DNA of 64,000 nucleotides from Chitinophagaceae bacterium. GTDB taxonomy: Bacteria; Bacteroidota; Bacteroidia; Chitinophagales; Chitinophagaceae. Positions 18,627 to 59,699 of the stretch are shown here, in pieces (within the stretch, counting starts at the first letter, position 1; the number at the start of each line of letters is the position of its first letter). A model generated the notes under the pieces. That model was not told the origin of the DNA and did not search any database. It worked only from the letters and a program-made list of their open reading frames with translations. The DNA lies in NCBI GenBank assembly GCA_016708765.1, contig JADJFD010000001.1:179626-243625 (forward strand), read 5' to 3'. The position numbers and the translations under genes were made by a program.

Positions 18627-20332
18627 AGATTTTTATTAGAAAGAAATTTTTCAAATTGTTTTATTGAAAAACTACTTAAATTATTCTCTTTCGTCATTCC
18701 ACCTTTTTGTGCAGCTAGCACTCCATATTTAATATCATCAAATCCATCTAAGGAATGGGCGTCTGGATCAATTGATAACAATACATTTTTTTCAATAGCA
18801 TAATCAATCCATTTCCAGTCAATATCCAATCGGCGGGGATGTGCATTCAGTTCTATTACTACATTATTTGCGGCACAGGCTTCTATAATTTTCTTATGGT
18901 CAACGGGGTAACCATTGCGGGTTAGTAAAAGCCTTCCCGTCATATGGCCCAAAATAGTGGTGTAAGGATTTTCAATGGCTGTAATTAGCCGCTTCATCGC
19001 TTTTTCTTCCGTCATTTTAAGAATGCTATGAACAGAAGCAATCACCAAGTCGAATGTTTTCAGAATATGCTCGGGATAATCCAGCTTTCCATCATATAAT
19101 ATGTCGCTTTCAATGCTTTTGAAGATTTTGAAAGCTTGTCCGCCGGAGTCTCGTTCCAAACGAGACGAAGGTTGGAGTGCAAATCTTGCATTCAGCTCAT
19201 CTATTTGCTTTTGCTGTGCAATAATCCGATCTTCTTTCAATCCATTGGCATAAAAAGCAGATTGAGAGTGATCGGAAATAACAAGATATTCAAATCCCCG
19301 TTTGATGCATTCATCCGCCATTTCTTCCAATGTATTACTTCCATCACTCCAATTACTATGGCTGTGAATAATAGAACGGATATCTTCTGTTTGTATAAGT
19401 TCAGGTAGTTTATTATTCTTTGCTCTTTCAATAATTTTTTCCGTTTCCCTCATGCAAGGAACGATGTAAGGAATGCCTGCATCCAAAAAAATATCCTCTT
19501 CAGTTTTTGCTTTGGCGTAATCAATTGTTGGAAATGCTTTTTGAAAAGCATCAATAAATTCTGCTGAACCTGTTGTTACAAATTGCCGTTCTATAATATT
19601 TTGTTCGCCAGTATATAAACGAAGCTTTAATCCGTTCTTCAATTTATATAAGAGGTTGTCGTCAATTTCTTCCAGTAACTCAGGTGGTTGCGCTGTTTCA
19701 AATTTTGGTTTTACAGTTTCGTTTGTTTCATTTATTACAAATTCTAATTCTTCAATTGTCAAAGCATGTCTTCTGTAAGCACCAGTTTGCATCACTTTTT
19801 CTGGCGAAAATAATTTTTTCAAATAGGCTTCAATCTGCGGAAAAACATCATTTAGCTGCGCAAATAAAAAATGTCCCTGATTTTGAAAATAGAATTCGAT
19901 TGCTTCTTGCACATTTTTTTGTGTCTTTTCTCCGAAGCCTTTAAACAGTGTTAACCTATTTTCATTACATGCATAAAGCAATTCACCCAACGATTCAATT
20001 TCCATTTCTTTCCAAATGGTATTGATTTTTTTTGGACCGATTCCTTTTATGTTCAGCATTTCGATTACACCAGGGGGAGTATTATTGATGTATTCACTAA
20101 GCACTTCCAGCTTACCAGTGTCAATCATTTCAGCCACTTTTTTACCCGTACTTTCTCCAATTCCTTTTATGCTAAAGAGTTTTTCCCGGGGCGTTTCTTT
20201 TAATTGCATGGGCAGCTTCTCTATGTTGAAAGCCGCTATAGCAAAGGTTTTTGACTTAAAGGAGTTTTCGCCATGTATATCCATCAGCTTGGCGAGTAGT
20301 GCAAAATTGTCGGCAATAGCAGCATTATCCAT
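18623..20332 (-). CDS. polX: DNA polymerase X / PHP-domain protein
   Basis: N-terminal GENSFK, HhH IKGIGPKK, PHP motifs HSHSNWSDG, ISDHSQS, SIESDIL, IASVHS, LGHMTGR, ELNAHPRRLD, PDAHS. Confidence 0.92.
   Translation of the reverse strand: MDNAAIADNFALLAKLMDIHGENSFKSKTFAIAAFNIEKLPMQLKETPREKLFSIKGIGESTGKKVAEMIDTGKLEVLSEYINNTPPGVIEMLNIKGIGPKKINTIWKEMEIESLGELLYACNENRLTLFKGFGEKTQKNVQEAIEFYFQNQGHFLFAQLNDVFPQIEAYLKKLFSPEKVMQTGAYRRHALTIEELEFVINETNETVKPKFETAQPPELLEEIDDNLLYKLKNGLKLRLYTGEQNIIERQFVTTGSAEFIDAFQKAFPTIDYAKAKTEEDIFLDAGIPYIVPCMRETEKIIERAKNNKLPELIQTEDIRSIIHSHSNWSDGSNTLEEMADECIKRGFEYLVISDHSQSAFYANGLKEDRIIAQQKQIDELNARFALQPSSRLERDSGGQAFKIFKSIESDILYDGKLDYPEHILKTFDLVIASVHSILKMTEEKAMKRLITAIENPYTTILGHMTGRLLLTRNGYPVDHKKIIEACAANNVVIELNAHPRRLDIDWKWIDYAIEKNVLLSIDPDAHSLDGFDDIKYGVLAAQKGGMTKENNLSSFSIKQFEKFLSNKNL
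19135..19176. repeat. 42-nt palindromic element inserted in frame in polX
   Basis: cttgtccgccgga-gtctcgtt-cca-aacgagac-gaaggttgga; perfect 8-bp inner stem. Exact removal converts ARFALQPSSRLERDSGGQAFK into ARFAPFK. Confidence 0.8.
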
Positions 20333-20362
20333 AGGTCAAATTTAAGATTATATACAGGGCAT

Positions 20363-20390
20363 AAAAAAAGTCCTGATGAATCAGGACTTT
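20363..20390 (-). terminator. Intrinsic terminator after the histone-like gene
   Basis: aaagtcctga-tgaa-tcaggacttt perfect 10-bp stem with T run on the minus strand. Confidence 0.8.
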
Positions 20391-20412
20391 CAATATGTTT
20401 AATTGCTTAAAC

Positions 20413-20547
20413 TTATTTCTTTTTAGCTGCTTTCTTCTTAGCCGCTTTCTTTTTAGGAGCTGCTTTTTTCTTAGCTGCTTTCTTTTTAGGAGCTGCTTTT
20501 TTCTTTGGAGCTGCTTTTTTCTTAGCTGCTTTTTTCTTTGTTGCCAT
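20413..20547 (-). CDS. 44-aa Lys/Ala-rich histone-H1-like protein (KKKAA[P] repeats); absent from the ORF track
   Basis: ATG at 20547 reads MATKKKAAKKKAAPKKKAAPKKKAAKKKAAPKKKAAKKKAAKKK*. Codons vary synonymously between units, and it has its own terminator. Confidence 0.85.
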   Translation of the reverse strand: MATKKKAAKKKAAPKKKAAPKKKAAKKKAAPKKKAAKKKAAKKK

Positions 20548-20651
20548 TTTGTTTAGAATTTAATGTTAGTAAATAATGGATTAACGTAGTAAAAATAAGA
20601 TTTTTTTAATACTACCCAAATTTTTTTTCCACAAAATGCTAAACAAGGTAA

Positions 20652-20918
20652 TTATGCTGTTGCTTCAACTGCAGCAACAGAAACTGTTGTTCTGTCTTTT
20701 TTTCCTTTACGGAATTCAACAAGACCATCCGTTAATGCAAATAATGTAAAGTCTTTTCCAAGACCAACATTTTTTCCAGGATGATAAACAGTGCCACGTT
20801 GACGAACAATAATATTTCCTGATAGTGCAGGTTGGCCACCAAATATTTTTACACCAAGGCGTTTGCTTTGTGAGTCACGGTTATTCTTTACGCTACCTTC
20901 ACCTTTTTTATGTGCCAT
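20652..20918 (-). CDS. rpmA: 50S ribosomal protein L27
   Basis: [24 protein letters not shown]. Confidence 0.98.
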
Positions 20919-20963
20919 ATCTCGAAGTTTTTTAAATTAATACTTTGGTTATTCAAATTGCGA

Positions 20964-21254
20964 TTAAGCAATACTGGTTACTTTAATTTTTGTGTAAGCC
21001 GTACGATGGCCTTTCTTTTTGTGAAAACCTTTTCTTCTTTTTTGCTTGTATGCAATTACGGTATCACCTTTTACATGGTCAACTATTTCAGCAGCTACCG
21101 TAGTACCAACTGATAATTTTCCATCAGCAGATGCTAATAAAACTTCAATGCCCTCTACTTTATCACCAGCATTTCCTTCCACACGGGGAATGTATAATGT
21201 TTGGTCTTTTTCTACTTTAAATTGCTGTCCAGCTACTTTTATAACGGCTATCAT
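20964..21254 (-). CDS. rplU: 50S ribosomal protein L21
   Basis: GQQFKVEK...KRRKGFHKKKGHR; upstream of rpmA. Confidence 0.97.
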   Translation of the reverse strand: MIAVIKVAGQQFKVEKDQTLYIPRVEGNAGDKVEGIEVLLASADGKLSVGTTVAAEIVDHVKGDTVIAYKQKRRKGFHKKKGHRTAYTKIKVTSIA

Positions 21255-21401
21255 ATTCTTAAAATTAGGACGGCAAAGGTAAGGGGAAATGTTGAAGCCG
21301 CAAACGGAAAATCAAAGATTTATGAACATTTATTGCCTTTCCAAATTGCCCCAGTATCTGTTATATTTGCAGGTCTTATTAAGGTTTCTATTGAATTGTG
21401 T

Positions 21402-22910: not shown

Positions 22911-22911
22911 A

Positions 22912-24081
22912 ATGAGTTCAACACCTCCAATCAAACGAATTGCCATTTTCGGTTCTACCGGATCAATAGGTACACAGACACTTGAAGTAATTGCTGACAA
23001 CCCTTCAATGTTTTCTGCCGAAGTATTAACAGCACATAATAATGATACGTTGTTAATCGAACAGGCTTTAAAATTTAATCCCAATATTGTTGTAATTGGT
23101 GACGATAAAAAATATACAGCAGTAAAAGACGCATTAGCTTCTACTGATATTAAAGTATTTGCAGGTGAAAAAGCATTAGAAGAAGTGGCTGCAATGGATT
23201 GCTATGATTTAATGCTTGCAGCTATTGTTGGCTATGCTGGATTGAGGCCAACTTTAAAAGCAATTGATAGTGGCAAGGCAATTGCTTTAGCAAATAAAGA
23301 AACATTAGTTGTTGCCGGTGATATCATTATGCGGAAAGCAGTGGAGAATCGGGTGCCAATTATTCCAGTCGACTCTGAACACTCCGCCATTTTTCAATGT
23401 TTGGTTGGCGAAACAAGAAATAGAATAGAGAAAGTGATTCTTACAGCATCTGGAGGACCATTTATCGGCCGAAAGCCAAACTATCTTGTAAATGTAAAAA
23501 GAGAACATGCATTACAACATCCTAATTGGAGTATGGGTGCAAAAATTACCATTGACTCTGCTACTTTAATGAATAAAGGATTGGAGATGATTGAAGCTAA
23601 TTGATTATTCAATCTTAAACCTGAACAAGTGCAGGTGGTAATTCATCCGCAAAGTATTATTCATAGCATGGTGCAATTTGAAGATGGGAGTGTGAAAGCA
23701 CAAATGGGATTGCCGGATATGAAGCTGCCCATACAATATGCTTTAGCATTCCCTCAGCGAATTAAGAATGATTTTCCAAGAATGGATTTTAAAAAAATTA
23801 CGACACTTTCTTTTGAAGAGCCTGATGTTAAAACATTCAGAAATTTAGCTCTAGCCGAAGAAGCATTGAACAAAGCTGGCAATCTTCCTTGCATTATGAA
23901 TGCCGCAAATGAAATAGCTGTATTTGCATTTCTTCGCAATAGAATTAACTTTCTTGACATGACGGATGTAATTGAAAAGGCAATGAATGCTGTTCCATTT
24001 ATAGAGAAACCAACGCTGGAGGAATATTTTGAAAGCGATGGCGAGGCCCGTAACTTCGCTGCCGATTTAATTAAACTTTAG
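22912..24081 (+). pseudogene. dxr: 1-deoxy-D-xylulose-5-phosphate reductoisomerase with one in-frame TGA at 23602-23604
   Basis: GSTGSIGTQT, LANKETLV, PVDSEHSAIFQ, MGAKITIDSATLMNKGLEMIEA, then N-*-LFNLKPEQVQVVIHPQSIIHSMV in the same frame; TGA sits at the conserved Trp (EAxWLF). Confidence 0.95.
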
Positions 24082-24129
24082 ACACTTATTTTTCCCTGAT
24101 ATAAATAGGATTTCTTTTATAAACTTACT

Positions 24130-27400: not shown

Positions 27401-27768
27401 GGGGGTGCCTGGTTTTGACAGCGTAGATCTTTGGAAGTGTAAGCATGTACTGCGTTGCGTAATTAGCAGTTTAATCTGAATACGAAAACTATAAATGGCA
27501 ATACACAGTATGCCATGGCTGCCTAATCAGTGATTAAGTAGTCATATGGGCCGCCGGGCCGGTTGATCTGTTACCATGCCCCGCCGCCGACTCAACAACA
27601 AAACAGGTTGCTGCAATCATAGGCTGTGCTGATTGCTCAAGACTATTCAGCTAAGGAATTAATCGGTTGTCTTTTTCCAGTTGGTTCCCGACATAACAAA
27701 ATTGAATAAACATGTAGAAAGCTTTTGAAGAATATGTTTGGACAGGGGTTCGATTCCCCTCACCTCCA
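27401..27768 (+). ncRNA. ssrA: tmRNA; tag peptide (A)GNTQYAMAA* at 27497-27526
   Basis: 5' GGGGGTGCCTGGTTTTGACAG pairs with 3' CACCTCCA including the G3-U wobble; T-arm GGGGTTCGATTCCCC; internal tag ending in AA*. Confidence 0.95.
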
Positions 27769-27771
27769 CAA

Positions 27772-41985: not shown

Positions 41986-44709
41986 ATGAAAAGGCTCATT
42001 TTTAGCACTACACTATTATTATCATTCACTATTTTACTTGCACAAAAAAAAACATTAGACCATTCTGTTTATGATGGCTGGCAAAGCATCGGTGAACGTA
42101 TGATCAGCAATGATGGGAAATGGGTCGTTTATTCCATCAACCCACAAGAAGGCGACAATGAATTGGTGATACAATCATCAGATGCCACTTACAAAAAAGT
42201 GGTGCCAAGAGGTTATAACGCTACAATTACTGAAGACAGTCGCTATGCTATTTTTAAGATTAAACCTTTTTTTGCTGATACTAGAGAAGCAAGAATAAAA
42301 AAGAAAAAGCCTGATGATACGCCAAAAGATTCTTTTGCCATAGTAGAATTGGGTAAAGACAGTGTATGGAAACTACCCAAAGTAAAAAATTATAAAACAC
42401 CTGATAAAGAAGCAGGCTGGGTAGCTTATCATCTGGAGAAAGCAATAGAGAAAAAAGAAACAGCGAAGAAGCCTGAATCATCAGATAAAAAAATTGCGGA
42501 TAGTTTGAGCAGAGTAATTGATTCTTTGTACAATGTAATTGAATCAATGCCGAAGAAAAAGAAAAAAAACAAGGATGATGACGAGGAAATTATTTTTTCT
42601 GAATTATTAATTACCAATTACACTGATGCCGACGGCGATGAAACTCCTACTGGCCCAACTGATGCTGGAACTGATTTAGTTGTTCGAAATCTTTACGATG
42701 GAAAAGAAAAGACATTCAAAAATGTACTGGAATATCAATTTAGCAAGAAAGGGAAGCAATTGCTGATAGAGCAAGCTAAAAATCCAAAAGATAGTTTAAG
42801 TAAAGCTTCTGTGTTTGTATATAATCTAGATAAAGCAGCAACAACTGTTTTAAGCAATGGTGGAAATGAGTTTAAGAACTTTTCTTTTTCGGAAGATGGA
42901 TCACAACTAGCTTATGTGGCAGAAAGAGATGCAAAGCCAAAAGAGTTGCAGAAGTTTTATAAACTATGGTATTATAAAAATGGAATGGATAGTGCAAGGA
43001 TGCTTGTTGATAAGAATTCGGTAGGAATGGAATTAGGTATGACAGTGAGTGAACATGCCAATCTTAGTTTCAGCAAATCAGGCAGCCGATTGTTTTTTGG
43101 AACAGCACCTATTCAAGCTCCAAAGGATACAACTTTAATAGATATTGATCTGGTAAAACTAGATGTGTGGCATTATAATGATGATTATTTACAACCCGTA
43201 CAGTTAAGAAGATTACAAAGAGATTTACAAACAAGCTATCTGGCAGTTTATGATTTCAATGATAATAGTTTGCAGCAATTAGAAACTGAAGAAATTCCTA
43301 CAGTTTATCAAACCAATGAAGGCGATGGTAGTCAATTTGTGGGGGTTACAGATTTTGGCAAACGAATAGAAAGCCAATGGACTGGTACGACTAAAAAAGA
43401 TATTTATGCTATCAATGTAAAAGATGCCAGTAAAAAATTAGTGAAGAAAGATTTGGATGGATTTATTTCACCTCAACTTGTTTCACCAACCGGAAAATAT
43501 ATAATGTGGTACGAGAGCAAAGCGAAAAATTATTTTGCTTGGGATGGAACAATTACAAAAAATATTACAGCTAATATTAAGTTTCCTTTATGGGATGAAG
43601 AACATGATTCGCCGAGTGATCCGCCGCCTTATGGAGTAATGGGTTGGTATAAAAACGATTCATTATTATTTGTTTATGATCAGTATGATATCTGGGAGAT
43701 TAATCCATCTAATTCTTTTAATGTAAAAAATATCACTAATGGAAGGGAAAAGAATGAAGCGTACAGGTATTTAAAAACAGATAATGAAGAAAAGTTTATT
43801 GCATTGCCTCCGGTAAAATGGCTGAAATTTACTAATAAAATTACTAAGAGTGAAGGATTAGCTCATTTAGGAATTACCACCAATAATAAATTAAGAGGAG
43901 TTTTATACAAGCCGGAAGATTTTGATTCCACAAAGAAGTACCCGATGATCATGTATTTCTATGAAACACATTCTAACACTTTGCATGATTATATTGACCC
44001 CACACCAACAGGTAGTCGCTTAAATATTTCCTTCTTTGTAAGCCGTGGGTATGTTGTTTTTTCTCCGGATATACATTACACCACTGGTAAGCAATCAAAA
44101 AATACATACGACTATGTAGTAAGTGCTGCTCAATCGTTGGCAAAGAAAAAATGGATTGATGGTGCTAATATTGGCATACAAGGTCAAAGCTGGGGTGGTA
44201 TACAAGTTGCTCAGTTAATTACAATGACCAATATGTTTAAAGCAGCATGGGCTGGTGCTCCTGTTGCCAACATGACAAGTGCTTACGGCGGAATCCGCTG
44301 GGGAACTGGTGTTACTCGTCAGTTTCAATACGAAAAAACACAAAGCCGGATTGGAGCTACATTATGGGAGCGGCCAGATCTTTATATTGCCAACTCTCCG
44401 TTATTCCATTTGCCAAAAGTAAAAACACCATTAGTAATTATGGCTAACGATGCAGATGGAGCAGTTCCTTGGTATCAGGGCATAGAACTTTTTACCGGAA
44501 TGAGAAGACTTGGTAAAAAAGTTTGGATGCTTACTTATAATGGAGAAGACCATAACCTTGTTCAGCGTATCAATAAAAAAGATATTTCAATAAGAGAACA
44601 ACAATATTTCGATTGGTTATTGAAAGGAGAGAAACCGCCAAAGTGGATAGTAGATGGTATTCCTGCCGTGAAGAAAGGAAAAGATTGGGGGTTGGAACTG
44701 GTTGATTAG
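41986..44709 (+). CDS. S9 prolyl-oligopeptidase-family peptidase
   Basis: Signal peptide, beta-propeller repeats, nucleophile GQSWGG, DADGAVPWYQG (Asp), GEDHNL (His). Confidence 0.92.
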   Translation: MKRLIFSTTLLLSFTILLAQKKTLDHSVYDGWQSIGERMISNDGKWVVYSINPQEGDNELVIQSSDATYKKVVPRGYNATITEDSRYAIFKIKPFFADTREARIKKKKPDDTPKDSFAIVELGKDSVWKLPKVKNYKTPDKEAGWVAYHLEKAIEKKETAKKPESSDKKIADSLSRVIDSLYNVIESMPKKKKKNKDDDEEIIFSELLITNYTDADGDETPTGPTDAGTDLVVRNLYDGKEKTFKNVLEYQFSKKGKQLLIEQAKNPKDSLSKASVFVYNLDKAATTVLSNGGNEFKNFSFSEDGSQLAYVAERDAKPKELQKFYKLWYYKNGMDSARMLVDKNSVGMELGMTVSEHANLSFSKSGSRLFFGTAPIQAPKDTTLIDIDLVKLDVWHYNDDYLQPVQLRRLQRDLQTSYLAVYDFNDNSLQQLETEEIPTVYQTNEGDGSQFVGVTDFGKRIESQWTGTTKKDIYAINVKDASKKLVKKDLDGFISPQLVSPTGKYIMWYESKAKNYFAWDGTITKNITANIKFPLWDEEHDSPSDPPPYGVMGWYKNDSLLFVYDQYDIWEINPSNSFNVKNITNGREKNEAYRYLKTDNEEKFIALPPVKWLKFTNKITKSEGLAHLGITTNNKLRGVLYKPEDFDSTKKYPMIMYFYETHSNTLHDYIDPTPTGSRLNISFFVSRGYVVFSPDIHYTTGKQSKNTYDYVVSAAQSLAKKKWIDGANIGIQGQSWGGIQVAQLITMTNMFKAAWAGAPVANMTSAYGGIRWGTGVTRQFQYEKTQSRIGATLWERPDLYIANSPLFHLPKVKTPLVIMANDADGAVPWYQGIELFTGMRRLGKKVWMLTYNGEDHNLVQRINKKDISIREQQYFDWLLKGEKPPKWIVDGIPAVKKGKDWGLELVD

Positions 44710-44789
44710 TTTATTAGTTAAGTAGTTAATTGGGCGATAAATATTATTTTTTCCCATTTAAACCAATTAACTATTTAACTGATTAACCA
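44702..44789. repeat. Inverted pair of 8-nt tandem arrays between convergent genes
   Basis: ttgattag/tttattag/ttaagtag/ttaattgg facing ccatttaa/ccaattaa/ctatttaa/ctgattaa. Confidence 0.75.
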
Positions 44790-47686: not shown

Positions 47687-49351
47687 CTAGTTCTTTAGTA
47701 TAAATTTCCGTAGAAAGTTTAATGCGTTGGCGGCTGTCATCTCAATATTCCGTTGCCTGTCAAAGCGAAGATGTAAAACAGTTGTTTCCACTTTATTCTT
47801 ATCAGCTACAGCGATCCAAACGGTTCCAACTGGTTTATCTTCAGTTCCTCCTTCCGGCCCCATAATACCTGAAACAGCAACAACATAATCTACATTCAAA
47901 GTTTTTATGGCACCTTTTGCCATTTCAGTAACCGTTTCTTCACTAACGGCACCGGTTTTTTCCAATGTTTCTTTTTTTACACCAAGAATATTTTCTTTTG
48001 TTTCATATGAGTAGCTCACTACTGAGCCATTATAGTATATTGATGAACCAGGAATTGCTGTGATCAGATGAGCAATATAACCACCAGTACAACTTTCAGC
48101 GGTTCCCATAGTCTTGCCTTTTGCTTTCTTCATCATCTTTTCAAAAAGAGGCAGCAATTCTTTTTCAACTTCTTCCTTATTATTACCTGTTGTTGTCAAT
48201 CTTAGTTTTACCATACCATAATTTGGCAAGTATGCAAGTTTAATATGCGATGGTAGAGAAGGTTCAAATTCTTTCAGCATTTCTGCCAACATAGATTCGC
48301 CAATACCGGCAGTGAAAGCAGTTTTATGAACGATGGCAGGCAAATCATATTCCTTAAGAATAAATGGAATTACTTCATCCATCATTAATCCTTTCATTTC
48401 GTGGGGAACGCCGGGTAGGGAAATAAATACAGGCCCAGCCTCCCCAAACCCCTCCGCAGGAGGGGCTTCAGAGTCTGATATTTCAGGCTTTTCTTTTTTT
48501 AATTCGAGAAGGATAGTGTTTATTGTATAATCGGTTTCAGATAATACCTGTTTGTTGGTGAAACGAATGACATTAAAGCCAAGCATGTTTAATTCTTTCG
48601 TTCGTTCGTCATCACTTTTTTTATTTTCCGGGAGCTGATGATGCAGTCCATCAACTTCAATAATTAGTTTTTCTGAAAGAGAAACAAAATCAGCAATATA
48701 AGTTGAAATAATATGTTGTCTTCTAAACTTAAAACCAGCCATTTTTTTTCCTTTCACAATTTCCCATAATAGCTTTTCAGCATCAGTAGACTTACTTCGA
48801 TGCTCCTTTACAAAATCTTTTAGCAAGCCATATACAAATGGATCTGCTCTTAAGTAAGCTTTAGTGTTAAATGCACTTTCGGATTCCAAATCCCCCCTGC
48901 GGGGGGTGGGGGGGCTGAACAACATCCCCGGTGCCGTACCTCTTTTATTATGTAAAACTGTACACACATCCGGTACTTCAGCCTGCTTCATATTTCTTTC
49001 CAGCATTGGACCGCTACGACGAAATACGTTTTCAAATAAATATTTTACATGAGCCAGCACTTTCTCATTCACTATCATCTTACCGCCAAAATATTTGCAA
49101 AGAAGTGGTTTGGTAATATCATCTGCCGTAGGGCCTAATCCACCAGTAATAATAATGATGTCTGAGTTTTCTCCTTCTTCATCCAATGCCTGCCATATAT
49201 CATCATACACATCACCCACAGCAACTCTTCTTCTTACCCACACACCAATTTTATTGAGTTCCTGTGCAATAAAAGCAGAGTTGGTGTCAATTGTTTGGCC
49301 AATCAATAATTCATCACCAATGGTGATGATAGAAGCATTAACATTATTCAT
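47687..49351 (-). CDS. cinA: CinA-family protein (MoCF/COG1058 domain + PncC domain) with in-frame DUF559 insertion
   Basis: ITIGDELLIGQTIDTN, ITGGLGPTADDIT, GTAPGM, SLPGVPHEM, TAESCTGG, AVSGIMGPEGG, VGTVWIA. Confidence 0.93.
   Translation of the reverse strand: MNNVNASIITIGDELLIGQTIDTNSAFIAQELNKIGVWVRRRVAVGDVYDDIWQALDEEGENSDIIIITGGLGPTADDITKPLLCKYFGGKMIVNEKVLAHVKYLFENVFRRSGPMLERNMKQAEVPDVCTVLHNKRGTAPGMLFSPPTPRRGDLESESAFNTKAYLRADPFVYGLLKDFVKEHRSKSTDAEKLLWEIVKGKKMAGFKFRRQHIISTYIADFVSLSEKLIIEVDGLHHQLPENKKSDDERTKELNMLGFNVIRFTNKQVLSETDYTINTILLELKKEKPEISDSEAPPAEGFGEAGPVFISLPGVPHEMKGLMMDEVIPFILKEYDLPAIVHKTAFTAGIGESMLAEMLKEFEPSLPSHIKLAYLPNYGMVKLRLTTTGNNKEEVEKELLPLFEKMMKKAKGKTMGTAESCTGGYIAHLITAIPGSSIYYNGSVVSYSYETKENILGVKKETLEKTGAVSEETVTEMAKGAIKTLNVDYVVAVSGIMGPEGGTEDKPVGTVWIAVADKNKVETTVLHLRFDRQRNIEMTAANALNFLRKFILKN
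48431..48916 (-). mobile_element. 162-codon in-frame insertion: DUF559/Vsr-like endonuclease domain bounded by inverted GC-rich hairpin repeats
   Basis: STDAEKLLW, FRRQHII..YIADF, LIIEVDGLHH, DDERTKEL...GFNVIRFTN. Left end cagcctccccaaacccctcc-gca-ggagggg; right end cccccc-tgc-ggggggtgggggggctg. Confidence 0.85.
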
Positions 49352-49379: not shown

Positions 49380-50792
49380 TTGGTTAAATTTGACAGATTA
49401 ATGTTTAAGTCTATGAAGAAAATAATTCTTGTTTTTTGTACGGTATTTTTCGTTTCAGTTTCTTTTAGTCAGTCAGTTTCTCAAAACCTACAAAAAGCCT
49501 GGCAACAGTTTGAAAGCGACAGCCAGTTAAAACATGCCATCAGTTCCTTGTATGTTATTGATGCTAAAACAGGTGAGGTTGTGTTTGATAAAAACTCTCA
49601 GATTGGTTTGGCGCCGGCATCTACTCAGAAAATTATTACTGCCGCTACTGCTTTTGAGTTGTTGGGGAAAGATTATAGGTATAAAACGGAACTGGGAATA
49701 CTGAAAGGGGAAAAAGAAAACTCTGTGTACTTGAAACCTTCTGGGGATCCTACATTTGGTAGTTGGAGATGGAATTCAACAAAAGAACAATTCATACTTG
49801 ATGGGATAATTAAGACCTATAAACCTGTTATTGAAAGTACTAATTCGACAGTTTATGTAAATCAAAAAGGATGGGATAGGCAAAACATTCCAGACGGTTG
49901 GATTTGGCAGGATATTGGAAATTATTATGGAGCAGGCGCAGGTTTAATCAACTGGAGAGAAAACCAATATGACTTGATTCTAAAATCAGGTTCCAAAATT
50001 GGAGATAATGTGGAAGTGGTTAAAACAATTCCTGATTTATATTCTTATGAAATCAATTCATATGCTACTTCTGCTAAAGCTGGCTCTGGGGATAATGCCT
50101 ATATATATCTTCCTGCTTCAGAAAATGGCGGAGTTGTAAGAGGAACTATTCCTGTAAATGAAAATAAGTTTGAGATTTCTGGAGCTATGCCTTATCCAGC
50201 TAATCAATTTGTTGAGACACTTCGGGATACATTGTTTGGGAGAGATAAACCCTATAATCACATAGCTACACTGTTTAGCGATGAGTTTAAAAGTAAGCCA
50301 GAGATTTTGTACACCCACTATTCTCCATCCCTCGACTCCATCACTTATTGGTTCCTCAAAAAAAGCATTAACCTCTACGGCGAAGCATTACTAAAAACAT
50401 TTGCTTACGAAAAAAACGGTTTTGGCAGTACCGATGGCGGCGTAAAAATTGTAAAAGACTTTTGGAAACAAAAAGGTATTGATGAGGATGAATTAAACAT
50501 CAGCGATGGTTCTGGTTTATCGCCACAAAATAGAACAACGACTCATGCACAGGTGGAGGTTTTAAAATATGCAAAGGGAAAAGACTGGTACCCGTATTAT
50601 CTCAAAGGGTTCCCTGATTACAATGGCATGAAAATGAAAAGCGGTACTATAAAAGATGTAAAAGGCTTTTGCGGTTATCACAAAGCAAAAGATGGCAAAG
50701 AGTATATCTTTTCTTTTTTGGTAAATAATTACAATGGCAAAACTTCTGGAGTGGTAAGTAAGATGTATAAGGTGCTGGATGAGTTGAAGTGA
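49380..50792 (+). CDS. dacB: D-alanyl-D-alanine carboxypeptidase/endopeptidase PBP4 (S13)
   Basis: PASTQK (SxxK), SGDPTFG, SINLY (SxN), DGSGLS, MKSG. Confidence 0.92.
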   Translation: MVKFDRLMFKSMKKIILVFCTVFFVSVSFSQSVSQNLQKAWQQFESDSQLKHAISSLYVIDAKTGEVVFDKNSQIGLAPASTQKIITAATAFELLGKDYRYKTELGILKGEKENSVYLKPSGDPTFGSWRWNSTKEQFILDGIIKTYKPVIESTNSTVYVNQKGWDRQNIPDGWIWQDIGNYYGAGAGLINWRENQYDLILKSGSKIGDNVEVVKTIPDLYSYEINSYATSAKAGSGDNAYIYLPASENGGVVRGTIPVNENKFEISGAMPYPANQFVETLRDTLFGRDKPYNHIATLFSDEFKSKPEILYTHYSPSLDSITYWFLKKSINLYGEALLKTFAYEKNGFGSTDGGVKIVKDFWKQKGIDEDELNISDGSGLSPQNRTTTHAQVEVLKYAKGKDWYPYYLKGFPDYNGMKMKSGTIKDVKGFCGYHKAKDGKEYIFSFLVNNYNGKTSGVVSKMYKVLDELK

Positions 50793-53159: not shown

Positions 53160-53395
53160 GGGTATTTTTTTTGAATTGCAATATTAAGTAAAAGCGAAGA
53201 GGAATGATTCATATTATTATTTTCGAGGGAAATGGGTACTGTAAAGACAATGAAATGTTAAACCATTCTCAATAAGACACTTATCCACATATGTTTGGAA
53301 TGATGTTTGGTTTCACTTGAAATAATTTGAATATTCGCAACGTTTACTGATTATCCCCAAATTTTTCGGGGCCACCGGTTTAAAGGACAAAATCA

Positions 53396-56300
53396 ATGAA
53401 GAATCTAAGTTTACTGATAATTTGTATTGCTATCGGCCAAGCCGTCATTTCCCAACAAACCCGTTACTACACTGATTCCGACGAAAAATTTAAGGAAGCA
53501 AAAGAATATTTCCAGAAAGAGAAGTATAGTCTTGCTTATCCTTTATTGAAGGAATTAAGACAAGATATCCGGGAAACCAATAAAGCAAATCAACCGATTG
53601 TTGTACAGGAAATAAATTACTATGCTATTGTTTGTGCATTAAAGCAAAATGAAGGAAGGGCAGAAGAAGAGGCGCAGCAGTATATTGATGTAGAAAAAAA
53701 CAATGCCAGAGTGCAGATGATGAATTATCACTTGGCAGAATATTATTTCCGTACTGAAAAGTTTGAAGATGCGATCCGCTATTATGAGCAGGCCAATATC
53801 TCAAACCTCAGCAATAAGGAAATTGCTGATATGAGTTTTCATCAAGGTTATGCTTATTTCAATTTGCAAAATTTTGCAAAAGCAAAACCTTTGTTCAATA
53901 GCATTCGTTCCACGAAGGACGATCCTAATTATATGGATGCTAATTATTATTATGGTTTCCTTGCTTTCAGAGATAAGCAGTATGGCGAAGCATTGGAAAG
54001 TTTTAGAGTTGTAGAAAACGAAAAGAACTACAACACAGTTGTTCCTTATTATATAGCACAGATATATTATATACAAGGAAAAAAGGATGAAGCCATCACT
54101 TATATACAGAACAAGCTACAATCGGGTAGCAGTTCTCAGTATTACGATCTTGAATTAAAGCAGTTGATTGGTCATGCATATTTTGAAAAGAAAGAATATG
54201 CAAAAGCATTGCCTTATCTGGAAGATTATGTAGGTCGTTCCAAAAAAGTTCGTCGGGAAGATTTGTATGAACTTTCTTACAGTTATTATCAGGCCAATAA
54301 TCTTACCAAAGCGATTGATGGATTTAAACAATTAAGTGGTAAAGATGATTCTATAAGCCAGCATTCTATGTATTTGCTGGGTGATGCATATTTGAAGACT
54401 GGTCAAAAAGCAAATGCAAGAAATGCATTTTTGTTTTGTTCTTCCAACAGCAGCTATCCGGAACAAAAAGAGATTTCTAAATATCAATATGCAAAACTGT
54501 CTTACGAATTGGGCTATCAGGATGAAGCGTTGAACAGCTTAAGTTCTTTTTTGGCTGATTATCCAAACTCTACTTACAATAATGAAGCAAAAGAGCTTTT
54601 AGTAGATGTACTGGCAAATACTAATAATTACAAAGATGCTCAGGCTTTACTCGAAAGTTTAAGCAAGCCATCAGAAAATGCAAAGCGATTATATCCAAGA
54701 ATATTATACGGTCGAGCCACAGAATTTATTAGTGATGGTCAATTGAATGAAGCAGATGTATTACTGAGCAAAGTGATGAATGACAAATACAATGGTTCTG
54801 TTTTGCCATTCACACATTTTTGGAAAGGAGAAATTGGTTATCGTAATAACAAACTGGATACAGCGATTAAATATTACCAACTTTATGCAAACTCAAATAC
54901 ACCTACAAGTGGAGAGGCGAATATCAATAATGTTAGATATAACCTTGGTTATTCTTATCTAAGAAAAGAGAACTATTCCGTTGCTTTATCTTATTTCGAA
55001 CCGCTTGGAAGAGGTGCGGCGTTAAGTTCAAGTGCATTTGTGCAAGATGCCTATATCCGCACAGCAGATTGTCATTATATGCAGAAAGATTATACAAAGG
55101 CAAAAGCCATGTATGATAATGTAATTAAATATTCATGGCCTGCGGAAGATTATGCAACATTTCAGAATGCAATGCTTGCAGGTGTAAGAAGTTCTACTGA
55201 AAAGATTTCTTTGATGAATACAATGATCAGGAAGTTCCCTAACTCTTCTTTGGTAACAGATGCGAATATGGAAGTTGCTAAAACATATATGAGTAATGAA
55301 AGATTCCGTGAGGCGTTACCTTATTTAACAGCAGTAACAAAAACAACTGGCAATACGAGTCTAGTACCACAGGCTTATCTTAAATTGGGAACAGCTTATT
55401 TTAACCTAAAAAAGTAATCAGGAGGCACTAGCTCAGTTTAAAACGTTGGTAGAAAAATATCCTAATTCGCAGGAAGCAGATGATGCATTGGATATTATCA
55501 GAGTTATTTATATAGAAGATTCCAAGCCAGATGAATATGCAGCTTATATGCGTTCCGTGGGAAAACCGTTAAGTGTTAGTACAGAAGACTCACTTACGTA
55601 TGCAGCAGCAGAAAAACAATATGATGACCAAAAGATAAATGAAGCCTTAGCAAGTTTCAATGGCTATTTACAAAAATTTCCTAATGGTTCATATGCATTG
55701 GATGCAAATTTCAATAGAGCAGAAATTTATTATACAAAGAAAGACTGGGCAAATTCATTGGTTGGCTATGAGAATGTAGCAGTAAATGCACCAAACAGAT
55801 ATGCAGAAAGAGCGGTGCTTGCTGCAGCAAGAATTAATTTCTTCGAATTAAAAGATTATACAAAAGCAGAAGATTATTTCATTCAGCTAAAAGAAATAAC
55901 AGGTAGTCAGGAAATAAAATTGGAAGCGATGCGTGGTTTGTTACGTTCGCAATATCAGTTAAAGAAATGGACAGAAGCTGCTGCCAATGCAAAAGAGTTG
56001 ACAGAAGCAAAAGGAAGCAGTGCTGATGATAAGACATTGGCGAATATGACGATTGCAAAATCGTTCCAAGTGTCTGGCGAATTTGATCAGGCAATTACAA
56101 GTTATAAGTCGGTGGTGCAATTAAACAAAGCTGCAATGGCGGCAGAAGCCAGATATGAGATTGCTAGTTGCTGGCTTAGTCTGAACAAATTAAGCGATGC
56201 TGAAAAAGCCGCATTTGAAACAATCAATAAATCAGGGTCATATGACTATTGGGTAACGAAAGCATATATTCTTTTGGGAGATATTTATTTCAAACAAAAA

Positions 56301-56435
56301 GATTATTTCAATGCAAAAGCTACATTCCAAAGTGTTGTAGATAATACTACGGATGCTGAATTAAAAGCAGAAGCACAGTCAAAATTGGATCAGGTAACAG
56401 TAGAAGAAGGTAAATCAAGCAAGGTTAATAATTAA
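53396..56435 (+). CDS. Large TPR-repeat protein, frameshifted near 55408-55415
   Basis: Continuous TPR pattern across both ORFs. Removing one A from the A6 run gives YFNLKSNQEALAQFKTLVEKYPNS, joining the two ORFs. Confidence 0.85.
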
Positions 56436-56479
56436 ACCCCAACCTCCCGAAAATTCGGGACAGGCTCTAAAGGGGCTTT
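56436..56479. repeat. Nested palindromic repeat in the TPR-gene / outer-membrane-gene spacer
   Basis: Outer ccccaac...ctctaaaggggcttt with inner tcccgaa-aa-ttcggga-cagg. Confidence 0.7.
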
Positions 56480-56524
56480 AAATACGTTTTGAATAGAAAT
56501 TGTAATTCGGAATAAATAGTAATA

Positions 56525-58180
56525 ATGAAGAAGCAAATTTTTAAAATACTTTTACTGGCAACAGGCATTTTATCTTTTGGAATTATAAATGCTCAAAAAG
56601 ATACATCTGGTAAAGGCGGTGTTGAAATTATATCAGCATTTAAACCAATTCTAAGAGAAGCGGCAAAAATTAATTTCAATCCTACACCTCCGCCAGCAGA
56701 CGATACAAAGCCAAAGCTTACGTATGATATTCCTAATCAGAATCTTGCATTTGCCTATCAGCCTGGTTCTTTAAAGCCATTGGCGTTGGATATTGATTCA
56801 GTAGGACGTTTTGATAATAGCAACTACATCAAAGCAGGTTTCGGTAGTTTAAGAACTCCGTTTGTGCAAGCAGGTTTTTCTTTTGGCGATGGCGAAACTG
56901 CCGGACTTAATATCTATGCAAAGCATGTTGGCTCTGATGGTAAAAGAGAGTTTCAGAAATTCAGTAATACAAATGTGAAGTTATCTGGCTATTTCAGATC
57001 AGGAAATAACTTAGAATGGAATGCAGGGATTGGTATGAAACAAGAAAGAATGTATAAATATGGTTACGAACCACAAACACTTTCTTTTTCTAATGATTCA
57101 TTGAAACAAAACTTCCAGACTATATCTGCAAGAGTTGGTTTTCATAATATCAACAAAACAGAGTTTGGATTAACCTATTCTCCTGAAGTAAAAATTGATG
57201 TATTCAGCGATGATTTTAAAAATTCTGAAAGCAATACAGTTGTAAATCTTCCGCTTCAAAAAACATTAGGTAAAGAATGGGTTATTAATCTTGGGGTAAC
57301 GTTTGATCTTACCCGTCTCTCTCCAAAAAATAAAACGGCGTTGAATAACACTATGTATTATATATCACCATCGGTGCTGTATAAATCATCAAATATCAAT
57401 GCACAGATCGGTATCAGGCCTTCATGGGATAACAAGAGTTTTAAAATGTTCCCAAATGTATTGGCAGATATTAATACAGAAGATCGCCGCTTTACTTTTC
57501 AGGCAGGGTGGACAGGCTATATCCGAAAAACCACTTATATGTACCTGGCGGGAGAAAATCCGTGGTTATTTATTCCTGATCAATTAAAGAATACATGGAT
57601 TGAAGAACGGTTTGCAGGGTTTAAGGGTTCTGTTGGAGATCATTTCACCTATGCTGCTAAAGTGGGATTCAACAAACTAAATAATCAACCATTGTTTGTA
57701 AATGATACATTAACTGCTTTGGGTGGAAAATCTTTCCGTGTGGTGAACGAAAGTAAAATGAATGTGGTGAATTTTGGTGGGGAATTAGGTTTTAATATCC
57801 ATGAAAAGTTTTCAATAATTACAGGAGTTACTTTCAATCAGTTTTCTGGCTTGCAAGATAATGCTAAAGCCTATGGGCTAATTCCGCTGGAACTGAAAGC
57901 AGCTATGCGTTTACAGATCATAAAAGATCTTTGGTTAAAAACAGATTTGTTTGCCTGGGATGGTGCAAGGTATCAACTTAAGGATGGCACTCCCGGAAAA
58001 TTAGAAGGTGCAATAGATTTAAGTGCTGGACTTGAGTTTAAAATAACCAAGAACATAAATCTTTGGACGCAATTCAACAACGTTTTCAATAAAGAATATC
58101 GGCGTTGGAACCAATATCCTGTATATGGGTTCAACTTTGTCGGGGGAGTCGTATTTTCGTTTGACCAAAAGACGAAATAA
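56525..58180 (+). CDS. Outer-membrane beta-barrel protein (TonB-dependent-receptor-like)
   Basis: Signal peptide, amphipathic strands, FNNVFNKEYRRWNQYPVYGFNFVGGVVFSF near the C-terminus. Confidence 0.75.
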   Translation: MKKQIFKILLLATGILSFGIINAQKDTSGKGGVEIISAFKPILREAAKINFNPTPPPADDTKPKLTYDIPNQNLAFAYQPGSLKPLALDIDSVGRFDNSNYIKAGFGSLRTPFVQAGFSFGDGETAGLNIYAKHVGSDGKREFQKFSNTNVKLSGYFRSGNNLEWNAGIGMKQERMYKYGYEPQTLSFSNDSLKQNFQTISARVGFHNINKTEFGLTYSPEVKIDVFSDDFKNSESNTVVNLPLQKTLGKEWVINLGVTFDLTRLSPKNKTALNNTMYYISPSVLYKSSNINAQIGIRPSWDNKSFKMFPNVLADINTEDRRFTFQAGWTGYIRKTTYMYLAGENPWLFIPDQLKNTWIEERFAGFKGSVGDHFTYAAKVGFNKLNNQPLFVNDTLTALGGKSFRVVNESKMNVVNFGGELGFNIHEKFSIITGVTFNQFSGLQDNAKAYGLIPLELKAAMRLQIIKDLWLKTDLFAWDGARYQLKDGTPGKLEGAIDLSAGLEFKITKNINLWTQFNNVFNKEYRRWNQYPVYGFNFVGGVVFSFDQKTK

Positions 58181-58734
58181 TGTACGCTGAACTTTATAGC
58201 TATCTCATTTTACATAAAAATTTACCAGTGCCGGGCATCGGCACTTTTTTATTGCAAAGACATTCCGCTGTTGCAGATTTTCCTAATAGAAAGATTTTAC
58301 CGCCCTCTTATAGCGTTGCATTCGATAGTAAAGAACAAACTCCGGCAATGAGTTTTTATAAATGGCTTAGTCAGGCTTTATCATCATCCGATCATGAGGC
58401 TGTAACAAGATTTAATGATTTTGCTTTCAATCTGAAAAATCAATTGGCAAATGGTGATATCATTAACTGGAATGATGTAGGAACGATAAGCAAAGGCTTA
58501 GGTGGCGAAGTGAAATTTATTCCACAGGAAAAGATAGTGCTGGAACAACCAGTGGCTGCAGAAAAAGTGGAAAAAAAATCGCTTTGGTGGGCGGCTGCAG
58601 TAGTCATCGGGTTGATAGCAGTTGTTTTTTTGGGTTGGTACTTTTCTGAAAATGGAGTAGAAGTTACTTCTACTGCAAACAGTAAACAAGTAAGTCCAAT
58701 TGAATCAACAGCGACTTACAAGCTATTGCCTTAA
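58180..58734 (+). CDS. HU-like (HU-CCDC81-type) domain membrane protein
   Basis: LPVPGIGTF and VGTISKG HU-like motifs; TM WWAAAVVIGLIAVVFLGWYF. Confidence 0.6.
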   Translation: MYAELYSYLILHKNLPVPGIGTFLLQRHSAVADFPNRKILPPSYSVAFDSKEQTPAMSFYKWLSQALSSSDHEAVTRFNDFAFNLKNQLANGDIINWNDVGTISKGLGGEVKFIPQEKIVLEQPVAAEKVEKKSLWWAAAVVIGLIAVVFLGWYFSENGVEVTSTANSKQVSPIESTATYKLLP

Positions 58735-58781
58735 TATCTTCTTTCTGATTAATCATTATCCATTTACTTTGCGAGTATAAA

Positions 58782-59699
58782 ATGTCACAACTTATACATT
58801 ATACTAATTGTCCGGCTTGCGGTGCTGAAGGATTAAAACCTATTCTTACTGCCAAAGATTATACTGTAAGTAGTGAATTATTCGTAATAGTTGAATGTAC
58901 AGCTTGCACACTTCGTTTTACGCAGGATGTGCCTAATATTGATTCCATCGGACCTTATTACAAATCGGAGAATTATATTTCACACACCAATACATCCAAA
59001 GGATTTATAAACAGCCTTTATCAATCAGTAAGAAAAAGAACACTGAAGCAGAAAAGAAAATTGATAGAGAAAACCACAGGATTAAAAACAGGAAATTTTT
59101 TAGATGTTGGTAGCGGCACCGGTGCATTTGCCAGCGAAATGAAACAGGCTGGTTGGCAGATAACAGGATTAGAGCCTGATGACGATGCAAGAAAAGTAGC
59201 TGTACAAATAAATAATGTTGATTTAAATAACATCAACCTGTTTTATGATTTGCCGGAAAATAGTTTTGATGCAATTACTATGTGGCATGTGTTGGAGCAT
59301 GTACATGATTTGCAAGGTTATATTACAAAGCTGAAATCCATATTAAAAGAGAATGGGAAACTATTTATAGCAGTGCCAAACTATACTTCTAAAGATGCTG
59401 CTATTTACCAAGAGCATTGGGCAGCATATGATGTGCCAAGGCATTTGTATCACTTCTCACCACAATCCATGAAAATACTGATTGAAAAGCATGGAATGAG
59501 AATTGAGCAGTACAAACCAATGTGGTACGATAGCTTTTATGTGTCGATGCTCAGTAGTAAATACAAGAATGCCCGCCTGTCGGATAGGCAGGGAAAATCA
59601 AATTTATTTGCTTCATTCTTTAATGGGCTACGTTCAAATAGTAAAGCACTAGGTAATGTACAGCGGTGTAGTTCGGTAATTTATATTATTGGAAAATAA
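58782..59699 (+). CDS. Class I SAM-dependent methyltransferase with N-terminal Cys motifs
   Basis: CPAC..CTAC, FLDVGSGTG, ITMWHVLEHV, AVPN, YDVPRHLYHF. Confidence 0.88.
   Translation: MSQLIHYTNCPACGAEGLKPILTAKDYTVSSELFVIVECTACTLRFTQDVPNIDSIGPYYKSENYISHTNTSKGFINSLYQSVRKRTLKQKRKLIEKTTGLKTGNFLDVGSGTGAFASEMKQAGWQITGLEPDDDARKVAVQINNVDLNNINLFYDLPENSFDAITMWHVLEHVHDLQGYITKLKSILKENGKLFIAVPNYTSKDAAIYQEHWAAYDVPRHLYHFSPQSMKILIEKHGMRIEQYKPMWYDSFYVSMLSSKYKNARLSDRQGKSNLFASFFNGLRSNSKALGNVQRCSSVIYIIGK
59572..59592. repeat. 21-nt palindrome inserted in frame in the methyltransferase
   Basis: cccgcctgtc-g-gataggcagg; exact removal turns YKNARLSDRQGKS into YKNGKS. Confidence 0.8.

Follow-up and report, generated by a model that had tools for sequence, protein, structure and literature searches.

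An in-frame DUF559 nuclease cassette in cinA of a Chitinophagaceae bacterium: a probable selfish mobile element translated inside housekeeping enzymes

Our analysis concerns a stretch of 64,000 nucleotides (hereafter the window; positions 179,626 to 243,625 of contig JADJFD010000001.1 in assembly GCA_016708765.1) from a Chitinophagaceae bacterium of activated-sludge metagenomes, a sequence that is present in sludge and wastewater runs. An insert in the cinA gene of this bacterium is probably a selfish mobile cassette: it specifies a Vsr-like nuclease (DUF559) that has neither a start nor a stop codon, is bounded by inverted GC-rich ends, and is translated inside its host protein. Since the length of the cassette is a multiple of three and no stop codons interrupt it, it would be read as an extra domain of the protein whose gene it has entered. 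The positions of this cassette, its parts, and three smaller inserts in the window are compiled in Table 1.

The cinA cassette and its relatives

In the cinA product, Pfam detects MoCF_biosynth (residues 8-124), DUF559 (residues 178-284) and CinA_KH/CinA (residues 343-550), in this order. Empty CinA orthologues read GTAPGMLF-K[RK]DGK-VFISLPGVP, while the window protein reads GTAPGMLF-[S146...P306]-VFISLPGVP; the comparison of filled and empty alleles thus defines an insert of 161 codons that replaces the five codons of a K[RK]DGK beta-turn. The window has a G+C content of 36%, and only five of its 30-nt stretches reach 70% G+C or more, two of which are the ends of the cinA insert. The match to the DUF559 profile covers positions 4-108 of 109 (110.4 bits against a cut-off of 20.6), and among solved structures the profile matches include the DUF559 protein 3HRL (E = 1e-30) and I-Bth0305I (3R3P, a 'mobile intron protein'; E = 1.9e-6). 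Residues D76, E87, D89, H68 and R65-R66 are invariant in our alignment A3 of this domain, all of whose invariant residues are kept in the window copy; by homology, these conserved residues are predicted to be catalytic. The Vsr-like/EDxHD group contains proven and predicted homing endonucleases that reside in introns, lie between split inteins, or fracture genes (PMC2677866, PMC3424549). The nuclease cores of the cassettes are under purifying selection, with dN/dS values of 0.04-0.27 in the 11 pairs that were informative; two further pairs had a saturated dS.

An AlphaFold (AF2) model of the window protein built from 51 sequences is of moderate quality (mean predicted local distance difference test, pLDDT, of 67) and folds residues 170-286 into a separate alpha/beta domain. 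The junction peptides on its two sides (residues 148-169 and 287-305) have pLDDT values below 50, and the polypeptide leaves and re-enters the host fold between the adjacent strands 142-145 and 308-311 of a beta-hairpin. In metatranscriptome data, one contig runs without interruption from cinA through the N-side end of the cassette into DUF559.

Independent of the cassette, the cinA copy of the window differs from its relatives at position 48129 (minus strand), where four of four metagenome runs replace one base by 67 letters and are thus 66 nt (22 codons) longer. This segment, which is NIAKEYLVSDEDEGLEKVIGKIL-like and lies at the start of the PncC domain, is also present in our main comparator, the sister genome L001 (GCA_964275145.1; a syntenic 20-kb stretch with 86-88% nucleotide identity), and in a public protein of 576 residues (P0241). 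Its occurrence in the runs and in both relatives marks the window copy as carrying an in-frame deletion or an assembly gap. An exact-protein look-up of the window CinA returned no match; it differs from the public record by the 22-codon gap.

A protein search with the cinA insert retrieved 1387 relatives, many of them fused to MetH, UDP-GlcNAc 2-epimerase (WecB), LeuS, RecG or CinA. Embedded cassettes were counted among the best 80 of more than 587 relatives found in a genomic scan with one genome per species. At all 80 loci, the DUF559 core lies in frame within a long open reading frame (ORF) that extends for hundreds of codons on either side unless the contig ends; the frame is uninterrupted at 79 of them (one copy contains a stop codon), and at 51 there is no methionine codon near the cassette start. 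Pfam-confirmed host clusters comprise MetG (37 loci, two sites), MetH (17 loci, at least two sites), CinA (16 loci, all at the site used in the window), adenine deaminase (8 loci), a CoA transferase, and a B12-binding/MeaB fusion. A single metG gene (L047, 2236-5364) even harbors four in-frame inserts, two of which are DUF559 cassettes (at sites A and B); the others are a solo copy of a cassette end (HPPLGGGGA) and a 21-nt palindrome (NLPTGQA) of the type discussed further below. Carriers are mostly Chitinophagaceae, but cassettes were also found in Sphingobacteriales, Flavobacterium, Cytophagia, Emticicia, Vicingaceae and Ignavibacteriota. A scan of viral contigs yielded only six distant relatives (31-42% identity), and phages are consequently no obvious vector.

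Conserved housekeeping genes are a typical location for inteins and introns, and in some yeast mitochondria ribosomes bypass GC-rich hairpin inserts located in coding regions; one may hence ask if the insert is lost on the way to the mature protein, be it as an intein, as an intron or by translational bypass. Of the alternatives considered here this is the least probable, and we rejected all three versions of it. Pfam detects no Hint/intein domain; the insert ends in ...GEAGP followed by Val instead of Cys, Ser or Thr, and has no terminal His-Asn; Ser146 at its start is not conserved, as other copies begin with Arg, Gly or Lys; and an Rfam search at gathering thresholds across the whole window found only a transfer-messenger RNA (tmRNA), with no intron or other RNA family. 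Furthermore, the open frame that continues the host ORF through 79 of 80 inserts would not be needed by an element that is removed.

The distribution of the cassette also bears on the possibility that DUF559 has been domesticated as a functional part of CinA, a nuclease attached to a damage- or competence-inducible protein, and is not selfish at all. Among the 120 closest CinA orthologues, 30 are filled and 90 are empty at the same turn, and the two forms are interleaved at 70-78% identity in a patchy manner. The 11 closest orthologues are all filled, CinA is linked to DNA-damage responses, and purifying selection on the nuclease would be expected of a domesticated domain. Nevertheless, we regard domestication as very unlikely in view of the 90 orthologues that lack DUF559, the scars and the frameshifted copy that we describe below for the cinA site, and nearest relatives that reside in other genes; close cassettes occur in enzymes that are unrelated to DNA, among them MetG, MetH, adenine deaminase and CoA transferase.

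Table 1. Positions in the window of the cinA cassette, its parts, and the smaller inserts
Feature	Position	Strand	Details
Host gene cinA (CinA/PncC nicotinamide-nucleotide amidohydrolase family)	47687-49351	-	554-aa ORF, cassette in frame
DUF559 in-frame cassette	48434-48916	-	483 nt = 161 codons (residues S146-P306); comparison of filled and empty alleles
DUF559/Vsr-like PD-(D/E)xK nuclease domain	48500-48820	-	Lacks its own start and stop codons; Pfam PF04480
N-side terminal module	48882-48919	-	R1 match, 41.1 bits, E = 1.6e-6
C-side terminal module, in inverted orientation to the N-side one	48434-48474	+	R1 match, 37.9 bits, E = 7.2e-6
polX insert SSRLERDSGGQA	19133-19168	-	36 nt = 12 codons; in polX (18623-20332, -); compared with L089
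Methyltransferase insert GCCCGCCTGTCGGATAGGCAG	59571-59591	+	21 nt; in a class I S-adenosylmethionine (SAM) methyltransferase gene (58782-59699), peptide ARLSDRQ; R2 match at 59570-59594
Outer hairpin, plausible degenerate solo module	56436-56484	+	Directly after the stop codon of a TPR gene; interrupted by the nested insert
Nested hairpin insert CTCCCGAAAATTCGGGACAGG	56444-56464	+	21 nt; clean indel versus L001

Hairpin modules at the cassette ends

When oriented, the ends of the cassettes follow one plan of about 36 nt: a pyrimidine leader, (A)GCCYCCC, a spacer of 1-4 nt, a hairpin composed of CCCYCC, a loop of 3-4 nt and GGRGGG, and a tail CTTYAGA. We refer to this unit as the module. A covariance model (R1) built from 111 modules taken from cassette ends matches both ends of the window cassette on opposite strands, as terminal inverted repeats would. 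The N-side module of the window has the leader CCCCCCC and the hairpin CCCCCC-GCA-GGGGGG (48892-48906) and reads AGCCCCCCCACCCCCCGCAGGGGGGATTTGGAATCC on the gene strand, giving the peptide SPPTPRRGDLES. Its C-side counterpart has the leader CCTCCCC, the spacer AAA and the hairpin CCCCTCC-GCA-GGAGGGG (48449-48465); on the gene strand this end reads GAAGCCCCTCCTGCGGAGGGGTTTGGGGAGGCT and encodes the peptide EAPPAEGFGEA, the translation of the module being APPAEGFGEAGP. Across the family, modules on the N-terminal side stand in sense orientation and encode ASPNPSEGGALD, APLNPPQGGTLD or ASLNPSKGGTSD, whereas those on the C-terminal side are inverted and encode APPSEGFGEA, VPPxGGFRGA, IPPLGGGGA or NPPLEGREA. 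A strict detector that accepts only perfect stems found exactly one module on the plus strand upstream and one on the minus strand downstream in 56 of the 80 cassettes. Palindromes built from CCN and GGN triplets encode Pro...Gly in either orientation, a property that fits the disordered linkers of the AF2 model.

The module stem covaries. It is 94% paired, and 75 double-change cells were counted in it, in comparison with 24 in shuffled alignments; a single stem position is C-G 72 times and U-A 38 times. The modules may act as DNA or RNA structures. Of the 124 modules whose stem is asymmetric, 98, representing at least 12 stem types, have a leader that exactly mirrors the 5' arm; a direct copy was seen in one of the 124. 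Examples are CCTCCCC-AAA-CCCCTCC-GAA-GGAGGGG and CCCCTCT-AAA-TCTCCCC-...-GGGGAGA. A leader that mirrors the 5' arm is at the same time complementary to the 3' arm in parallel orientation. In terms of sequence, an intramolecular pyrimidine*purine-pyrimidine triplex requires such a combination of a mirror repeat with an inverted repeat, and the three-way covariation between leader, 5' arm and 3' arm suggests that the modules may be able to adopt such a structure.

Movement and decay of the cassette, and its place among known elements

For 27 of 81 nucleases, the nearest relative resides in a different gene or at a different site. The cassette in the adenine deaminase gene of L029 is 88% identical at the protein level to one in MetG (L045), with a dS of 0.49, but only 70% identical to any other copy in adenine deaminase. 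As the nearest relatives of a cassette are often found in different host genes, we conclude that the cassette moves. By the same count of 27 neighbors located elsewhere, the family departs from the rule 'one element lineage, one target site' that is applied to homing endonuclease genes. Filled and empty alleles can also be paired at metG site A (empty, KVP-LPDAE-GKVLYVW; filled, KVP-[cassette]-GKVLYVW), and sites A and B each occur in filled, miniature or empty form across genomes. The miniatures, seen at metG sites B and C, consist of an N-type module, 30-60 nt, and a C-type module without a nuclease, as exemplified by L015 (VAKQL[ASPNPSEGGASKPAGVTELSGSQNPPLEGREA]AQKNI); module pairs that lack DUF559 were recorded in L015, L021, L027, L028, L040, L044 and L020. 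At the cinA site, scars of 9-11 codons are found (RPPPGAGGP, RPPNPRSSP, RKKASSKGGAL), and the L001 cassette at this very site is frameshifted and retains about 66% protein identity to the window copy, compared with about 88% DNA identity of the flanks.

Relatives of the nuclease that possess their own ATG and stop codon are likewise bounded by inverted modules (L168, located after sucC, and L169-L171). In L169-L171 (1441-1951), the free-standing DUF559 gene lies between the genes for the alpha and beta subunits of a 2-oxoacid:ferredoxin oxidoreductase, and its modules reach into both of these genes, at the end of the upstream one and the start of the downstream one; they thus appear to be translated as tails of both neighbors. 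Stand-alone DUF559 proteins (about 123-168 residues) are named '5-methyltetrahydrofolate--homocysteine methyltransferase' by one source. This name has probably been propagated from cassette-bearing MetH proteins and would hence be an annotation artefact caused by the element.

These data lend themselves to a model for the life of the cassette. It would enter surface turns and inter-domain linkers of conserved housekeeping enzymes and replace a few native codons in doing so. The modules would likely play two roles, as DNA in the form of terminal inverted repeats, and as codons in the form of Pro/Gly linkers that allow host and nuclease to fold independently of each other. The nuclease would be produced only upon translation of the host gene and might cut empty or module-bearing targets, whereupon recombinational repair would copy the cassette into the break. 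Homing between orthologous alleles after DNA transfer, with an occasional jump into a new gene, would be the result; such homing is plausible because conserved genes provide long flanking homology. Ectopic jumps would need another route, possibly gene conversion of pre-existing module pairs, which have homology to both ends. Frameshifts and internal deletions would subsequently let cassettes decay into module pairs resembling transposable elements of the miniature inverted-repeat type (MITEs), scars of 9-11 codons, and solo modules. DUF559 as the enzyme that moves the cassette would be consistent with every locus examined, and DUF559/MTES_1575 is the only domain encoded in the cassettes.

The copy numbers of modules and nucleases in metagenomes bring in an alternative: the modules might be repeats of the repetitive extragenic palindrome (REP) or MITE type that are spread by another enzyme, such as a tyrosine transposase of the IS200 or REP-associated (RAYT) type, or by host recombination, with DUF559 being either a passenger or a homing gene that uses the modules as landing pads. 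In four sludge and wastewater metagenomes, compared in bins of 64 nt, the bin with the C-side module reaches 16-38 times the depth of the flanks and is a point at which many contigs diverge into different surroundings; the body of the nuclease stays at flank-level depth, i.e., it is single copy at 90% identity or more. Solo modules lie between genes, 45 extra modules were found away from cassette ends, and PD-(D/E)xK nucleases of the DUF559/MTES_1575 type are, to our knowledge, not known as transposases. On the other hand, inverted modules stand at both ends of every DUF559 locus examined (80 embedded and two free-standing kinds), and the miniatures keep the pair of N-type and C-type modules at sites of full cassettes. 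Moreover, the module consensus starts with (A)GCCYCCC and is devoid of the GTAG or CGTC tags typical of the heads of REP palindromes (PMC3733652). On balance, we judge another mobilizer to be unlikely, though a more serious contender than domestication of the nuclease. Joints between 48466/48469 and 48888/48890 were entertained as an excised cinA allele and rejected; they stem from short module-to-module contigs of other loci.

Our reading of the insert as a selfish cassette driven by its own nuclease has to be held against several observations that weigh on the other side. In the metagenomes, copies of the module are far more numerous than near-identical copies of the nuclease, and the excess implies that another mobilizer could be spreading the modules. 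Target-site duplications were sought at metG site A and at cinA, but none was found, and 5-7 native codons are lost, a combination that agrees neither with classical cut-and-paste transposition nor with homing in its simple form. No obvious motif is common to the insertion sites. The need not to misfold the host enzyme could in part account for the purifying selection on the nuclease. The AF2 model of the fusion protein is of moderate quality only, and the metatranscriptome data are sparse, resting on a single contig of low depth for which carry-over of DNA is possible. Finally, the query for which the 80 loci were the best matches contained the junction peptides, so that this set of loci is biased toward embedded forms. 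When viewed as an element with terminal inverted repeats or as the parent of MITEs, the cassette displays inverted ends, dispersed copies and ORF-less derivatives, but neither a target-site duplication nor a recognized transposase.

The first-pass annotation of the window, made from its letters alone, had envisaged an autonomous element accompanied by dispersed non-autonomous palindromes. The first half of this proposal is well reflected in a DUF559 family with inverted modules, miniatures, solos, scars and a module of high copy number, but the palindromes in polX and in the methyltransferase gene give no R1 match (E > 10) and do not fit into it. Dispersal was borne out for the module, which is highly repeated in the metagenomes, and for the methyltransferase palindrome, which has copies in other genes and genomes, but not for the polX insert, which is single copy.

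A bolder reading, which we offer tentatively, is that we are dealing with a new class of prokaryotic mobile element in which DUF559 would be the sole mobility enzyme, triplex-capable termini would double as recognition structures and linker codons, and the element would persist in translated form within essential enzymes; together with palindromes of seven codons, it would quite generally give rise to in-frame indels and inserted domains in the proteins of Bacteroidota and Ignavibacteriota. Several known systems share some of these traits. Vsr-like/EDxHD homing endonucleases, such as I-Bth0305I and the 'fractured gene' endonucleases (Dassa et al., 2009; PMC2677866), belong to the same superfamily, target housekeeping genes, are patchily spread, and have free-standing members. 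They are located in group I introns, between the halves of split inteins, or split the host gene with a start codon of their own, whereas the cassette mostly has no start or stop codon, forms an internal domain of an unsplit host, has inverted hairpin ends, and moves between unrelated genes. Rickettsia palindromic elements (RPEs; PMC10969869) are multicopy palindromes that lie in frame in unrelated metabolic genes at sites compatible with the protein fold. However, RPEs are about 150 bp in size, belong to Rickettsia and are not linked to a nuclease gene, and no mobilizer is known for them; here, Bacteroidota and Ignavibacteriota carry GC-rich modules of 36 nt or palindromes of 21 nt, with a nuclease ORF flanked by the modules. 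The ShiLan-type insertion in the DNA methylase of an actinophage (PMC11855218) resembles the cassette in keeping the host frame open, in the lack of intein or intron features, in the possession of an endonuclease, and in its homing-like evolution. Its HNH nuclease is read in a frame different from that of the host, from a GTG start codon to a stop codon of its own, and neither hairpin termini nor miniatures are described for it; in the cassette, a nuclease of a different family is read in the host frame.

Inteins, too, are selfish in-frame inserts at conserved sites of essential proteins, are often equipped with an endonuclease, and pass through cycles of invasion, decay and loss. The cassette differs from them in that it lacks a Hint domain and the residues of a splice junction and shows no sign of being excised, and the insert would stay tethered by its linkers in the mature protein. 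The mobile GC clusters of yeast mitochondria sometimes adjoin endonuclease ORFs. Like the modules, they are short, GC-rich, palindromic and mobile repeats of an AT-rich genome that are placed between genes and at times within coding regions (PMC4478555), but they are organellar and unrelated in sequence, follow no regular plan of a nuclease with inverted termini, and no mirror-repeat leader has been described for them. In the literature searched, we found no report that combines a nuclease sharing the reading frame of its host, inverted hairpin termini that double as linker codons, and miniature derivatives. The cassette has a fair chance of deserving a class of its own and appears to represent a hitherto undescribed way for mobile DNA to live in proteins from which it is not spliced out.

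The prevailing view is that selfish endonuclease genes persist in essential genes only through removal, either from the RNA as part of an intron or from the protein as part of an intein, or else through an intergenic location. The cassette suggests a third solution: to stay in the protein, insulated by linkers that are encoded by the terminal repeats of the element itself. If this is true, it would explain the 'DUF559 fusions' and the Pro/Gly-rich loop insertions in enzymes of Bacteroidota and would provide a natural mechanism for domain insertion and the formation of in-frame indels. It would also supply protein engineering with permissive sites and linkers that nature has already validated (in MetG, MetH, CinA and others), add a nuclease with a possibly structure-specific target (hairpin or triplex), and flag an annotation problem, with gene callers splitting or misnaming the host genes and stand-alone DUF559 proteins being labeled 'methionine synthase'.

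Small palindromes and further features of the window

In addition to the cassette, the first-pass annotation had listed a palindrome in polX, one in a methyltransferase gene, and a nested intergenic pair, and had counted these as four GC-rich palindromic insertions within 40 kb. All four are true indels when compared with relatives, but the term GC-rich is not appropriate for the polX hairpin, whose G+C content is about 50%. The lengths of the coding inserts are, as stated there, divisible by three (483, 36 and 21 nt; the polX insert measures 42 nt against the common form). Viewed as hairpins alone, the small elements are unremarkable both in a strict hairpin scan and in a generic scan for inverted repeats, and they become visible only against relatives; the reality of the three therefore rests on comparative indels. 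We see an even chance that the palindromes in polX, in the methyltransferase gene and between genes are local mutations, caused by slippage or template switching at tolerant loops, which are neither mobile nor linked to the cassette. That none of the three fits the module model speaks for such an origin, and the CinA scars (RPPPGAGGP) argue in the opposite direction, as they show that cassettes leave small in-frame remnants. The three elements need not share one history, as outlined below.

The strongest case for a dispersed element is the methyltransferase insert, a pure insertion of 21 nt (seven codons) in a protein that is 100% identical to one from a metagenome-assembled genome at NCBI. 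It is absent from most of the listed homologues (298 residues), the sister species included, and homologues have 0, 7 or 9 extra codons at the same site, with a perfect 8-bp stem in L086. Its hairpin matches unrelated genes of other genomes with at most three mismatches in 22 nt, while about 0.003 such matches are expected by chance. These copies define a second palindrome family of about 21 nt (consensus AACCTGCCTACCGGACAGGCAGG, stem CCTGCCT/AGGCAGG), for which we built a model (R2) trained without window sequences; when R2 was run against the window, the methyltransferase copy ranked first (26.2 bits, E = 2.4e-4). Family members are read in two different frames in different genes. In-frame copies encode NLPTGQA (two ORFs and MetG of L047), NLPDGKA (MetH of an Ignavibacteriaceae member), NLPAGGQG (polX of L082, at another site) and PRLPVGQ (L014), and some copies are intergenic. 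The recurrence in unrelated genes and the top rank in an independently trained model speak against a local mutation and imply that at least the methyltransferase palindrome is a dispersed element; it belongs to a family of 21-nt palindromes that is distinct from the module and likewise enters ORFs in frame. Its hairpin is not over-represented in the metagenomes, and DUF559 is absent from the listed methyltransferase homologues. A further R2 match at 1186-1210 (E = 0.19) was rejected, as it is native ECF-sigma sequence ('MLPDSQAAED').

For polX, the evidence favors an origin by local mutation. The insert is absent from 68 of 76 scored relatives; the closest of them, L089 (93% identity), has the empty allele ALQP|FKIF, so that the window has 12 additional codons versus L089 and 14 (42 nt) versus the common form. 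The perfect 8-bp hairpin (GTCTCGTT/AACGAGAC; 19 nt at 19148-19166) decays in relatives without compensation. There is no excess in metagenome depth, as befits a single copy, and the empty allele of a related strain co-occurs. L090 and L092 possess two and four tandem units of 33 nt at this site (around position 500-700), each encoding QPSPKSSGGQA, which amounts to a coding minisatellite in the region of the PHP domain. The insert matches neither R1 nor R2, and no DUF559 cassette was found at the polX site in 80 metagenomic loci. We conclude that it is a single-copy hypervariable local loop outside both families; the first-pass annotation had itself cautioned that the polX and methyltransferase elements may belong to separate families. 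It is speculation that both are old scars like those in cinA. An attempt to derive the polX insert, as well as the loop 'LPDAE' native to metG, from decayed copies of the 21-nt family was abandoned because the similarity is too weak.

The intergenic pair consists of an outer hairpin and a nested 21-nt insert. In L001, the outer hairpin is uninterrupted (AAGCCCCAACCCCTAAAGGGGCTT) and reads AAGCCCC-AA-CCCC-TAAA-GGGG-CTTTAAAT, in the order of leader, spacer, hairpin and tail of a short module. Its proposed resemblance to a cassette end is reflected in its position as the third-best R1 match in the window, but with 8 bits and E = 8.5 this match is not significant alone; the L001 copy reaches 16.4 bits (E = 0.076) but was part of the R1 training set. 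Similar intergenic solo modules occur in L007 and L048, and the stretch 56436-56468 recurs at another metagenomic locus beside a CCCTCTCC/GGAGAGGG module. It is plausible that the outer hairpin (56436-56479) is a degenerate solo module. The nested piece matches neither R1 nor R2, as would be expected of a local mutation. The TPR protein encoded upstream is a single ORF of 1012 residues in L001, and in the window it is represented by ORFs of 673 and 329 residues in different frames (53396-55417 and 55446-56435); this split is a frameshift or a sequencing error.

The tmRNA gene detected by Rfam, which has no relation to the cassette, lies at 27401-27771 (122 bits; tag peptide GNTQYAMAA). An AT-rich inverted repeat at 44709-44787, with arms of 25 nt that are 88% complementary and 29 nt apart, is positioned between genes ending at 44709 and 44790 and may be a bidirectional terminator. 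Peptidase_S13 (D-Ala-D-Ala carboxypeptidase) is encoded by one ORF of 470 residues in the window (49380-50792) and by two overlapping ORFs in L001 (8538-9972). At 58569/58570, within the ORF 58180-58734, the window lacks 87 nt that are found in three of four metagenome runs, and L001 has about 79 extra nt; direct repeats resembling AGAAAAAG border this gap, which is, after the 22-codon gap in cinA, a second window-specific in-frame deletion or assembly gap.

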